From a virus (Duplodnaviria; Heunggongvirae; Uroviricota; Caudoviricetes), in IMG/VR virus record IMGVR_UViG_2778261509_000008: a stretch of 9,291 bases of DNA. The stretch is one strand, 5' to 3'. Under the pieces are notes generated by a model. It did no database searches. It saw nothing but the letters and a program-made list of their open reading frames with translations, and had not been told where the DNA came from. Shown here in pieces: positions 1 to 6,777 of this stretch (positions are counted from its first letter, which is position 1; each line of letters starts with the position of its first letter). Position numbers and translations under genes: made by a program.

Positions 1-99
1 AGTCATCGGGCATTATCTGAACATAAAACACTATCAATAAGTTGGAGTCATTACCACAAAAGTAATCCTTGCTATGGGTGGTTAATCATGCGTTAATGG

Positions 100-249
100 T
101 GTTCTGGTTTGTTACAAATTTATCTGAAGCAGTCATTGTTATAATTTTATTATTTGTACCTCTTGAGATTTCCTTGTTGGTTTTTCTCTCTGATATTTTT
201 TTTTCGGACCATTCTGCCCAAGGGCTAATTTCTTCAAAAGGTAATAATT
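100..249 (+). promoter_or_regulatory. Putative promoter and long AT-rich 5' leader of the cold-shock gene
   Basis: AT-rich untranslated stretch directly upstream of the csp ATG, with an SD-like aagg at 238-241 and a tataat hexamer at 140-145. CspA-family genes are known to carry long structured leaders. No convincing -35 element at proper spacing was found, so the promoter position is not resolved. Confidence 0.3.
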
Positions 250-462
250 ATGTCTAACAAAATGACTGGTTTAGTGAAATGGTTTAACCCTGAAAAAGGT
301 TTTGGTTTCATCACGCCGAAAGATGGCAGCAAAGATGTGTTTGTCCATTTCTCAGCAATTCAGAGCAACGATTTCAAAACATTAACTGAGAATCAGGAAG
401 TTGAATTTGGTATTGAGAACGGACCTAAAGGTCCTGCCGCTGTTCATGTAGTGGCGCTTTGA
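250..462 (+). CDS. cspI: Cold-shock protein, CspA family (70 aa), CspI-like
   Basis: 70-aa ORF starting [23 protein letters not shown] with RNP1-like KGFGFI and RNP2-like VFVHF motifs, diagnostic of the cold-shock domain. SD aagg sits about 8 nt upstream of the ATG. The sequence matches my recollection of E. coli CspI (Qin prophage), which I could not verify by search. Confidence 0.9.
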
Positions 463-472
463 GGTAGACAAT

Positions 473-661
473 ATTACAAACCATATTCACTTTAGATGCC
501 CGTGTTGTCATGGTTCCCAGTATAGAACATCATCTTTTGATGTTTCTGACATGAATCCTTTCGGGGCAAAATGTATCTTTTGTAAATCAATGATGATTAC
601 ATTTGATAATATTTCACAATACTTAAATGCCAGCCGTCTGTCGTTGGATTTAAAAAAGTGA
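473..661 (+). CDS. Small zinc-ribbon-like protein (ynfQ/ymcF-like); start codon uncertain (ATT at 473 or ATG at 551)
   Basis: Reading frame is open from 452 to the TGA at 659-661 and encodes two CxxC pairs (CPCC ... CIFC) about 20 residues apart. The only ATG in frame is at 551, downstream of the first Cys pair. An ATT at 473 lies 8 nt after a GAGGT SD-like motif (461-465) and would give a 62-aa product. A strong intrinsic terminator follows at 666-689. A small gene between csp and ynfN/gns matches the cspG-ymcF-ymcE-gnsA / cspI-ynfQ-ynfN-gnsB arrangement as I recall it. Confidence 0.4.
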   Translation: MTNHIHFRCPCCHGSQYRTSSFDVSDMNPFGAKCIFCKSMMITFDNISQYLNASRLSLDLKK

Positions 662-665
662 AAAT

Positions 666-689
666 GAAGGCTCCTTCGGGAGCTTTTTT
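666..689 (+). terminator. Rho-independent terminator after the csp / zinc-ribbon ORF unit
   Basis: Stem gaaggctcc / ggagcttt around a TTCG tetraloop (675-678), immediately followed by a T6 run (684-689). It begins 5 nt after the stop at 659-661. Confidence 0.65.
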
Positions 690-733
690 GCTTGGTGTCT
701 ATTCGATGGATACTCACATACTACGGTAACATC

Positions 734-964
734 ATGAAAAAAATCATAGTTTTTTTTAACTCTGAACCAGCAGTGGTAGTGCCAGCGATGACTGGAGTTA
801 ACACCATCATGCGTGAATATCCAAATGGCGAAAAAACACACCTTACTGTAATGGCCGCAGGGTTTCCATCTCTGACCGGAGATCATAAAGTCATTTATGT
901 AGCCGCGGATCGACATGTTACTTCAGAAGAAATTCTGGAAGCAGCAATAAGGCTCTTGAGTTGA
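734..964 (+). CDS. Small hypothetical protein, YnfN/YmcE-like (76 aa from ATG 734; alternative start ATG 809 gives 51 aa)
   Basis: ORF ends at TGA 962-964. In-frame ATGs are at 692, 734 and 809 and none has a strong SD. Position between a csp gene and a gns gene matches ynfN (Qin) and ymcE as I recall them. The 51-aa form from 809 (MREYPNGEKTHLTV...) matches the size I remember for K-12 YnfN. Confidence 0.55.
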   Translation: MKKIIVFFNSEPAVVVPAMTGVNTIMREYPNGEKTHLTVMAAGFPSLTGDHKVIYVAADRHVTSEEILEAAIRLLS

Positions 965-1135
965 TTTGATGCTATTGCATTGATAATTCAGGAAAATTCT
1001 CTTTGTCTGTTTGTGTAAAATTTAGACTATCGTATGTTGATTATTGCGATGTTTCATCTTATCTTTTACACGTTTGCACCATATAATCGACTTACTGTGT
1101 AACTGGAAAGTCATAACAGACTAAAAGAGGAAATG

Positions 1136-1309
1136 ATGAATATTGAAAACTTAAAAACAAAAGCAGAAGCAGATATTTCTGAATATATAACAAAAAAAAT
1201 TATTGAACTTAAGAAAAAGACCGGGAAAGAAGTTACCAGTATTCAGTTTACCGCACGGGAAAAAATGACGGGTCTTGAAAGCTATGATGTCAAGATTAAT
1301 TTAATCTGA
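1136..1309 (+). CDS. gnsB: GnsA/GnsB-family protein (57 aa)
   Basis: ORF MNIENLKTKAEADISEYITKKIIELKKKTGKEVTSIQFTAREKMTGLESYDVKINLI. SD aaagagg at 1123-1129 precedes tandem ATGs at 1133 and 1136. The C-terminal FTAREKMTGLESYDVKI matches my memory of GnsA/GnsB. This ORF is under 60 aa and is absent from the supplied ORF track. Confidence 0.8.
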   Translation: MNIENLKTKAEADISEYITKKIIELKKKTGKEVTSIQFTAREKMTGLESYDVKINLI

Positions 1310-1336
1310 TGTATTCAATAATAAAATTTATCCATA

Positions 1337-1360
1337 AACCTCGTTTTTACGGGGTTTTGT
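1337..1360 (+). terminator. Putative intrinsic terminator downstream of the gns gene
   Basis: Hairpin ccucg (1339-1343) / cgggg (1350-1354) with one G-U wobble pair and a 6-nt loop, followed by tttt g tt. It lies 28 nt after the gns stop. Confidence 0.45.
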
Positions 1361-1423
1361 TATATTTGAATGGTTCCGAATATCTAAATCACAATTGTTG
1401 ATGGTTTTTATTAAACCAATGCA

Positions 1424-1460: not shown

Positions 1461-1871
1461 TTAGCGTGGTAAGATCTGTGTAGTTTTCTGGATGCTTTCA
1501 GTAAATAGTAATGAATTATCAAAGGTATAGTAATATCTTTTTTGTTCGTGGATATTTGTAACCCACCGAAAAACTCCTGCTTTAGCAAGGTTTCTTCTGT
1601 ATTCCTGAAATGTGATCTCTCTGGATTTCAGCTTATTAGAGGTCGTTTCTATAAGATGCCTATCCTTTGAAAATTTGACAGACACAATGTTTTTTAGGCC
1701 CTTTAATAACACTGTATTATCATTTTTTAATACAATATGAACATTCTCTGTGGCTAAATAGTAAATGTAATGTGAGACATTGTGACGTTTTAGCTCAGAA
1801 TAAAACCATTGATAGTTTAAATCGTTTCGAACTTTATCAAATATTTGTTTAAAAATGACTACCTGATCCAT
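1461..1871 (-). CDS. ydfO: DUF1398-family protein, YdfO-like (136 aa)
   Basis: Minus-strand [34 protein letters not shown]... The ORF track begins 5 codons upstream at 1886 (MEGLS), but the GAAGG SD is positioned for the ATG at 1871. The sequence matches my recollection of the YdfO/YbcV/YcgX (DUF1398) prophage family. Confidence 0.8.
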
Positions 1872-1928
1872 AGATAAACCTTCCATGTGATATGAGGGGG
1901 CGTAGTCTGCACGATTATCTAAATTGCT

Positions 1929-2162
1929 TCAATCTGGTCTGACCTGTTTTCTGAGCAATTCAGTAATGTCACTCTTTTCTTTGTTTGCTTCAGGAGAAAC
2001 TCTTTTTTCTGAGCACAGTCTCCGGCGGCAGGCTTCAATGACCCAGGCTGAGAAATTCCCGGACCCTTTTTGATCAAGAGCGATGTTAATTTGTTCAATC
2101 ATTTGTTTAGGAAAGCGGATGTTGCGGGTTGTTGTTCTGCGGGTTCTGTTCTTCGTTGACAT
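1929..2162 (-). CDS. ynfO: Small basic protein with predicted ribbon-helix-helix (CopG/Arc/MetJ-like) DNA-binding fold, YnfO-like (77 aa)
   Basis: Minus-strand ORF with a basic N-terminus (TKNRTRRTTTRN), then a beta-strand-like IRFPKQMIEQI and helix-like segments (NIALDQ ... FSAWVIEACRRRL), a pattern typical of RHH proteins. Weak SD ggga upstream. The RHH fold is inferred from sequence pattern only. Confidence 0.65.
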   Translation of the reverse strand: MSTKNRTRRTTTRNIRFPKQMIEQINIALDQKGSGNFSAWVIEACRRRLCSEKRVSPEANKEKSDITELLRKQVRPD

Positions 2163-2289: not shown

Positions 2290-2550
2290 ATGCACGTTGT
2301 GACATGTAGATGATAATTATTATCATTTTTCGGGTCCTTTCCGGCGATCCGACAGGTTACGGGGCGGCGACCTCGCGGGTTTTCGCTATTTATGAAAATT
2401 TTCCGGTTTAAGGCGTTTCCGTTCTTCTTCGTCGTAACTTAATGTTTTTATTTAAAATACCCCCTGAAAAGAAAGGAAACGACAGGTGCTGAAAGCGAGC
2501 TTTTTGGCCTCTGTCGTTTCCTTTCTCTGTTTTTGTCCGTGGAATGAACA
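2290..2550 (+). other. cos: Lambda-type cos site (cosQ, cosN, cosB) for DNA packaging
   Basis: The lambda cohesive-end sequence GGGCGGCGACCT is at 2362-2373, preceded by the lambda right-end motif gacaggttacg. cosB-type heptamers CGTTTCC are at 2414-2420 (R3) and 2515-2521 (R1), with GGAAACG at 2475-2481 (R2, inverted), and an A/T-rich IHF-like stretch at about 2441-2458. A 15-bp inverted repeat gaaaggaaacgacag (2471-2485) / ctgtcgtttcctttc (2511-2525) is present. Nu1 starts at 2551. Confidence 0.85.
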
Positions 2551-3070
2551 ATGGAAGTCAACAAAAAGCAGCTGGCTGACATTTTCGGTGCGAGTATCCG
2601 TACCATTCAGAACTGGCAGGAACAGGGAATGCCCGTTCTGCGAGGCGGTGGCAAGGGTAATGAGGTGCTTTATGACTCTGCCGCCGTTATAAAATGGTAT
2701 GCCGAAAGGGATGCTGAAATTGAGAACGAAAAGCTGCGCCGGGAGGTTGAAGAACTGCGCCAGGCCAGCGAGGCAGATCTCCAGCCAGGGACTATTGCGT
2801 ACGAACGCCATCGACTTACGCGTGCGCAGGCCGACGCACAGGAACTGAAGAATGCCAGAGACTCAGCTGAAGTGGTGGAAACCGCATTCTGTACTTTCGT
2901 GCTGTCGCGGATCGCAGGTGAAATTGCCAGTATTCTCGACGGGATCCCCCTGTCGGTGCAGCGGCGTTTTCCGGAACTGGAAAACCGACATGTTGATTTC
3001 CTGAAACGGGATATCATCAAAGCCATGAACAAAGCAGCCGCGCTGGATGAACTGATACCGGGGTTGCTGA

Positions 3071-3096
<26 letters not shown>
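2551..3096 (+). CDS. nu1: Terminase small subunit Nu1 (181 aa)
   Basis: 181-aa ORF MEVNKKQLADIFGASIRTIQNWQEQGMPVLRGG..., near-identical to phage lambda gpNu1 as I recall it, with an N-terminal winged-HTH region. It sits directly downstream of cosB, as in lambda. Confidence 0.95.

Positions 3097-6777
<3,681 letters not shown>

Follow-up and report, generated by a model that had tools for sequence, protein, structure and literature searches.

The region under study is very probably an accessory gene block, or moron, of the kind carried by Qin/Tritos-type lambdoid prophages of Escherichia coli, namely cspI-ynfQ-ynfR-ynfN-gnsB (Table 1). It lies near the start of the window, meaning the whole 9,291-nucleotide stretch of viral DNA that was analysed (IMG/VR record IMGVR_UViG_2778261509_000008). 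With comparably high confidence, the block can be placed 3' of the lysis cassette and 5' of ydfO-ynfO-cos-terminase. This block is already known and common; existing annotation and publications cover its genes, where they lie in the prophage, their induction by cold, and their classification as morons. Positions 56-2400 of the window shared 99.4% DNA identity with the Qin prophage of strain K-12, in the reverse orientation of the K-12 record, and gene coordinates were obtained by projecting the RefSeq annotation of near-identical loci onto the window. CspI, YnfQ, YnfR, GnsB, and YdfO showed no differences from the K-12 proteins, YnfN was the same over the 51 residues shared with K-12, and YnfO carried three substitutions. 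All four genes named in the preliminary description (csp, a zinc-ribbon ORF, ynfN, and gns) were present on the + strand where it had placed them. Its count of four small + strand genes nevertheless falls short of the five annotated in the block, as it overlooked ynfR (664-729), along with the ATT start of ynfQ, two minus-strand genes, and the IS1 end.

Table 1. Features of the window, with position, strand, and basis of assignment.
Feature	Position	Strand	Basis or remark
IS1 element end	1-55		IS1 ends in L001, L003, and L004 match at 98-100%
Candidate cspI promoter, TTGCTA-17-GTTAAT	69-97	+	Read by eye; fits leader start
cspA-type thermoregulator RNA (long 5' UTR and cspI coding region)	103-489	+	Rfam RF01766
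cspI, cold shock protein, 70 aa	250-462	+	Pfam CSD E 1.6e-31; RefSeq; identity to K-12 CspI
ynfQ, YmcF-like zinc-ribbon small cold-shock protein, 62 aa	473-661	+	PF23641; RefSeq
ynfR, 21-aa small ORF reading across the hairpin	664-729	+	RefSeq
Intrinsic-terminator-like hairpin, GGCTCC-TTCG-GGAGC and T6	666-695	+	Fold and conservation; directly 3' of ynfQ
ynfN, intact 76-aa form	734-964	+	phrog_3425, full length, E 7e-54
Candidate weak gnsB promoter, TTGATT-17-TATCTT	1037-1065	+	Inferred
Candidate gnsB promoter element, TATAAT	1082-1087	+	Inferred
gnsB, GnsA/GnsB family, 57 aa	1136-1309	+	PF08178 E 3e-35; PHROG match
Intrinsic-terminator-like hairpin and T-run	1336-1367	+	Scan match 1336-1357; after gnsB
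ydfO (DUF1398)	1461-1886	-	PF07166 E 1.7e-46; RefSeq (RefSeq start at 1871)
ynfO (YlcI/YnfO, DUF3950)	1929-2162	-	PF13132 E 5e-21; NF041551
Lambda-type cos cohesive end, GGGCGGCGACCT	2362-2373	+	Read directly from sequence
nohA/nu1	2551-3096		ORF
Large terminase subunit	3071-4996		ORF; portal and head genes follow

At a coverage of at least 80%, the block (250-1360) occurred in 2095 of the 5426 complete E. coli genomes, nearly always as one copy per genome, and its presence in about four of every ten genomes therefore marks it as ordinary; seven phage records also carry it. Gene order and orientation were those of K-12 Qin (cspI-ynfQ-ynfR-ynfN-gnsB-ydfO-ynfO-nohA, b1552-b1548 region), which is truncated after nohA, whereas the window runs on into complete terminase, portal, and head genes, and which has its rzpQ side where the window has the IS1 end. 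The block was 99.8-99.9% identical to the window in Tritos and PhiR42_1, and 94% identical in 2H10, HannyBb, PhiR63_1, and mEp460_ev081, the 94% variants being distinguished by a 36-nt insertion after gnsB, just upstream of the terminator, and by a stop codon in ynfR.

In homologous prophages and phages, the annotation places the block between the lysis genes and cos, and in Tritos its neighbours are an Rz-like gene on one side and the end of the genome on the other. Where the phage records carry the lysis cassette immediately 5' of the block, the window has IS1; the IS1 end abuts the cspI promoter region and replaces the lysis-gene side of the prophage, and the lysis genes normally found 5' of cspI are missing from the window because of it. 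None of the 5426 complete genomes contained the exact IS1/cspI junction as a single uninterrupted match. Given that the IS1 end is situated 14 nt upstream of the candidate -35 element of cspI, expression of the gene could be altered. On the other side, the earlier placement of the block upstream of cos was right insofar as a lambda-type cos follows, but the minus-strand genes ydfO and ynfO intervene after gnsB. Lambda itself carries morons between Rz and cos (bor, lom-type), which are accessory cassettes with their own promoter and terminator and are expressed in the lysogen; the block shares this late-region position, but its gene content is unrelated. The inter-module position, the cspA-type leader, and the terminators of the block, together with a putative promoter, are those of a prophage moron, and the initial view of the genes as a cold-shock accessory block upstream of cos thus agrees with our results. 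The moron reading is also already published, as cspI, ynfN, and cspB of Tritos (block 99.8% identical), an inducible prophage of the AIEC strain LF82, are listed as morons, with expression of cspI at 93-fold, ynfN at 27-fold, and cspB at 59-fold over the prophage background (PMC9928086). A reading of the block as a defence system was rejected, PADLOC having returned a generic CSD model for CspI only.

CspI belongs to the CspA family of RNA chaperones, and its CSD match (Pfam, E 1.6e-31) spanned residues 5-69; the top NCBIfam match of the protein was CspG at 137.8 bits, slightly under the cut-off of 144. The structured 5' UTR was recognized by the RF01766 model at 111.9 bits, above the gathering score of 78 (E 1.2e-28). 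This match begins at 103, which points to a transcript start near 103-105. In 1999, Wang, Yamanaka and Inouye reportedly gave the length of the cspI 5' UTR as ~145 nt. A simple promoter scan was negative on the + strand ahead of both cspI and gnsB, and the promoters in Table 1 are therefore candidates read by eye; the UTR length and the extent of the operon are likewise putative. Induction of cspI upon temperature downshift was reported by Wang et al. 1999, as relayed in PMC7406224.

The zinc-ribbon protein YnfQ matched PF23641 over positions 1-61 of 62 (E 1e-31), and its two CxxC pairs (C9, C12, C34, C37) were invariant. Its gene starts with ATT at 473, which lies 8 nt after a GAGG Shine-Dalgarno sequence and 10 nt past the cspI stop codon; between the stop codon at 449-451 and Met27, the ynfQ frame (open over 452-661) contains no ATG, GTG, or TTG. 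The paralogue ymcF is likewise ATT-initiated. D'Lima and colleagues are said to have proved the non-canonical start of YmcF/YnfQ experimentally in 2017 and to have found YnfQ to be cold-induced. We surveyed 80 species-representative loci encoding YnfQ/YmcF homologues, annotated by tblastn and simple scans. The ATT start of ynfQ homologues tracked csp adjacency across Enterobacteriaceae: at the 43 loci where a csp gene ends at most 40 nt upstream, the codon for residue 1 was ATT in 39, ATC in three, and ATG in one, and at the 37 loci where csp is not directly upstream, it was ATG in 23, ATT in 13, and TAC in one. In several genera of the same survey, ynfN followed ynfQ at +65 to +99 nt; gns was confined to Escherichia and Citrobacter loci. 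These patterns support csp-ynfQ(-ynfN) as the conserved core of the block.

Folding of the 666-689 hairpin with its T6 run gave -14.9 kcal/mol (z -2.65), consistent with the terminator initially proposed at this site, and a hairpin and T-run at 1336-1357, as had been anticipated for a terminator belonging to gns, folded at -11 kcal/mol (z -2.4). Terminator-like sites in 1-2400 numbered four against an expected 1.9 +/- 1.2, a count that is not significant alone, and we credit the two terminators because they are conserved and not because of this count. Both hairpins were unchanged in the 94%-identical block variant, and a hairpin and T-run followed the stop codon of the ynfQ homologue in 32 of the 43 csp-coupled loci, with differing stem sequences. 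The first hairpin is spanned by ynfR, which runs on for 40 nt past it. In the 94% variant, the stop codon shortens ynfR to 12 codons but still leaves the hairpin covered, suggesting that the YnfR peptide itself is not what is conserved. SPA-tagged YnfR is strongly induced by cold shock (PMC6001520). AZT induces cspI (6.5-fold), ynfQ (5.9-fold), and ynfN (5.8-fold) in K-12 with matching LexA and SspA dependence (PMC11228462), and the levels of cspI and ynfN change together from one growth phase to another (PMC7406224). The cold induction of YnfR and the tracking of cspI by ynfN in published RNA-seq therefore indicate that the first terminator is leaky or regulated. It appears that ynfN is co-transcribed or co-regulated with cspI, with substantial readthrough at 666-689, and these expression patterns weaken the preliminary statement that csp and the zinc-ribbon ORF share this terminator, insofar as it would make them a closed unit.

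The anticipated ynfN-like gene proved to be an intact one. Its 76-aa product is the conserved form of YnfN, with an N-terminus that is kept across genera, whereas the K-12 gene has lost 1 nt from a T8 run, and this frameshift is the reason why K-12 YnfN is annotated with 51 aa; the DNA of both the window and Tritos encodes the intact protein. The YnfN family is small and restricted to Enterobacteriaceae. Its AF2 model (pLDDT 89.5) comprised five strands and a C-terminal helix, and a search for structural neighbours gave no significant fold match. A relationship to YdfK, another small cold-shock protein of Qin, was considered and rejected, the two having no similarity.

GnsB was assigned to its family by a match to the GnsA structure in the PDB (4XO2; E 5e-20) and by 67% identity to GnsA. 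Plasmids carrying gnsA or gnsB raise unsaturated fatty acids and rescue growth at low temperature (bioRxiv 10.1101/2024.03.27.586906), and that preprint quotes Sugai et al. 2001 for the observation that Gns overexpression increases unsaturated fatty acids and suppresses fabA6(Ts) and a secG null mutation. The gnsB gene was absent both from the Tritos moron list (PMC9928086) and from the AZT list (PMC11228462), so its expression may be low or may depend on a separate weak promoter. A TTGATTATTG motif, located ~95 nt 5' of gns and kept in the prophage, Citrobacter, and chromosomal loci, could be part of such a promoter, namely TTGATT-17-TATCTT at 1037-1065. A quite different role for this end of the block would be that of a toxin-antitoxin (addiction) module stabilising the prophage, with GnsB as the toxin and YnfN as the antitoxin, paralleling the proposed YmcE-GnsA pair. 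Names and lists speak for this idea: PF08178 is called 'GnsA/GnsB toxin of bacterial toxin-antitoxin system', the RefSeq name is 'GnsA/GnsB family addiction module toxin', and PMC8484670, citing Wei et al. 2015, includes ymcE-gnsA among the type II toxin-antitoxin systems of E. coli. However, instead of an adjacent and usually overlapping gene for a YmcE-like antitoxin, the block presents ynfN, which is separated from gnsB by a 171-nt gap with no overlap and whose product has no similarity to YmcE. The gene patterns across the 80 loci also argue against a YnfN-GnsB pair, with ynfN present but gns absent at loci of Trabulsiella, Yokenella, Scandinavium, Raoultella, and Klebsiella, and the reverse, gns with no ynfN, holding for the chromosomal locus and one Citrobacter locus (L015). 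As PADLOC yielded no match for YnfN or GnsB and plasmid-borne gnsA or gnsB rescues growth rather than killing cells (bioRxiv 10.1101/2024.03.27.586906), we regard the addiction-module explanation as very unlikely.

Comparison with the chromosomal cspH-cspG-ymcF-ymcE-gnsA locus revealed a partial likeness. DNA identity amounted to 74.5% between cspG-ymcF and window positions 246-609 and to 73.2% between gnsA and positions 1118-1310, and no DNA counterpart of the intervening ynfR-ynfN-spacer segment (610-1117) was present in the chromosomal locus. The two loci thus have in common a csp gene, a 10-nt interval, an ATT-initiated zinc-ribbon gene of 62 aa, a hairpin and T-run crossed by an ORF, and a gns gene, but differ in an unrelated middle segment, the chromosomal one having no ynfN. 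The chromosomal ymcE overlaps both of its neighbours, and phage genes are absent around that locus. It is ynfR that ymcE matches by position, as both cross the hairpin that follows ymcF or ynfQ and use the same frame on its 3' arm. A middle gene common to both loci was rejected, YnfN and YmcE giving no BLASTP alignment at E<=100. The paralogy with cspG-ymcF-ymcE-gnsA proposed in the initial description hence extends to three pairs, csp, ymcF/ynfQ, and gns, at 73-74% DNA identity, but breaks down at the middle gene. The chromosomal locus was also collinear with a longer stretch of Qin, as cspH to the 5' part of cspG matched Qin cspF-cspB (75.9%), and a second csp pair (cspB/cspF) is found just after the Q antiterminator gene in homologous loci. 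A sliding comparison resolved cspG into a mosaic, in which the upstream region, the 5' UTR, and the first ~100 nt were cspB-like and the rest was cspI-ynfQ-like, and the chromosomal locus may therefore be a prophage relic. In the simplest reading of these sequence comparisons, the chromosomal island would be what remained of a Qin-like late region once recombination between two csp genes had removed the lysis cassette.

For the working of the block, we propose that a cold-shock promoter belonging to the block would drive its transcription, through a thermosensing 5' UTR of ~145 nt and independently of phage late transcription. One mRNA would serve cspI and ynfQ, with ynfQ beginning at an AUU 10 nt past the cspI stop codon, and the conserved leaky terminator after ynfQ would set the ratio of upstream to downstream products (ynfR, ynfN, and possibly gnsB). 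Csp-family proteins are reported, by Bae and colleagues in 2000, to act in antitermination. Cold may raise readthrough either by antitermination of this kind or by ribosomes translating ynfR over the hairpin, and the lysogen would gain RNA-chaperone capacity and a lipid-fluidity factor in the cold or under other stress. Because the block and the late operon share the same orientation, Q-antiterminated late transcripts would cross the block in lytic growth too. This orientation, the location between lysis and packaging genes, the further csp pair right after the Q antiterminator gene, and the retention of the block in seven phage records, among them that of the inducible prophage Tritos, would also suit a block that mainly serves the phage, holding late mRNAs in an unfolded or antiterminated state and the membrane in a lysis-competent one for lytic growth and packaging at low temperature. 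The expression record speaks otherwise. Block genes are expressed from a repressed prophage both in Tritos, where their level lies well over the prophage background without induction (PMC9928086), and in K-12 Qin (PMC7406224, PMC11228462), a cryptic prophage whose block genes react to cold, to long-term stationary phase, and to AZT (PMC6001520, PMC7406224, PMC11228462). Additionally, deletion of cspI affects how the host competes in long-term stationary phase (PMC7406224), and the Escherichia chromosome has a paralogous block as a fixed feature that lacks phage genes. We therefore consider a mainly phage-serving role very improbable and favour a lysogen-expressed moron controlled by its own leader and terminators.

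These results carry little weight as a discovery, and their main value lies in corrections: the five genes of the block, the ATT start of ynfQ, the unrelatedness of ynfN and ymcE, the leaky terminator, and the 76-aa form of YnfN. Tentatively, two ideas can be combined, although we hold the combination to be possible rather than probable. The chromosomal island would be a fossil of a Qin-like late region with cspG as its hybrid junction, and the nearly invariable AUU/AUC start of csp-coupled ynfQ/ymcF, together with the positionally conserved, leaky terminator crossed by a translated ORF, would constitute a temperature switch that sets the Csp : YnfQ : YnfN/Gns ratio through translation and antitermination. 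As a small evolutionary pointer, part of the cold-shock regulon of E. coli (cspG/cspH/gnsA) appears to be co-derived with a lambdoid late-region cassette, and such a shared origin fits the notion of prophages as suppliers of stress-response paralogues to their hosts.

The start codon of ynfQ, and of its homologue ymcF, varied with the gene lying upstream. Across the 80 Enterobacteriaceae loci surveyed (L007-L086; 43 with csp directly upstream and 37 without), 42 of the 43 ynfQ/ymcF genes directly behind csp began with ATT or ATC, whereas a non-AUG start was present in only 13 of the 37 others. Three of these loci (L008, L055, and L072) carried E. coli-like or Scandinavium-like sequence, yet their assemblies were labeled Veillonella parvula (MAG), Mucilaginibacter (MAG), and Chryseobacterium, and they are probably contaminating or mis-binned contigs.

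Features of the cspI-gnsB block and its flanks (window coordinates)
Feature	Position	Remark
IS1 end	1-55	adjoins the cspI upstream region
ynfQ/ymcF start codon	473-475	ATT
ynfR	664-729	reads across the terminator hairpin
T8 run	751-758	inside ynfN
Strong hairpin, GTCCGGC...GCCGGAC	1424-1451	folded on the minus strand; just 3' of the ydfO stop

The block was also compared with a 94%-identical variant (L006), for which the 90-95% identity band comprised 562 genomes. In this variant ynfR stopped prematurely, 12 codons in (L006 1915-1953), but the hairpin and its T-run were invariant. The variant also differed from the window around gnsB, with an extra 36 nt inserted between the gnsB stop and the gnsB terminator (window point 1310-1311). 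Farther downstream, different genes took the place of ydfO, one for a hypothetical protein of 68 aa and the other a shorter member of the YnfO family. The hairpin beyond ydfO was stable when folded on the minus strand (-19.7 kcal/mol, z -5.0) and had no adjacent T-run; it may represent the ydfO 3' end or a stabilizer element.

The conserved length of the YnfN protein is 76 aa. The run is T8 in the window and in phage Tritos but T7 in K-12 MG1655. This shifts the reading frame of the K-12 ynfN, whose annotation accordingly gives a 51-aa protein starting at an internal Met.

Upstream of cspI, the IS1 end lay 14 nt from the candidate -35 element, and none of the 5426 complete E. coli genomes searched contained this exact IS1/cspI junction in one uninterrupted stretch. 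In the related genome ECONIH5, IS1 was located 142 bp farther upstream than in the window, whereas in strain 10, another related genome, it followed gnsB.

Comparison with cspB and cspI of the K-12 Qin prophage revealed that the chromosomal cspG of K-12 (L003 2200-2900) is a mosaic, in which the upstream region, the 5' UTR, and the initial ~100 nt are cspB-like and the sequence beyond is cspI-ynfQ-like. The chromosomal cspH-cspG-ymcF-ymcE-gnsA island is collinear with the late region of Qin, except that the lysis cassette of Qin has no counterpart in the island.
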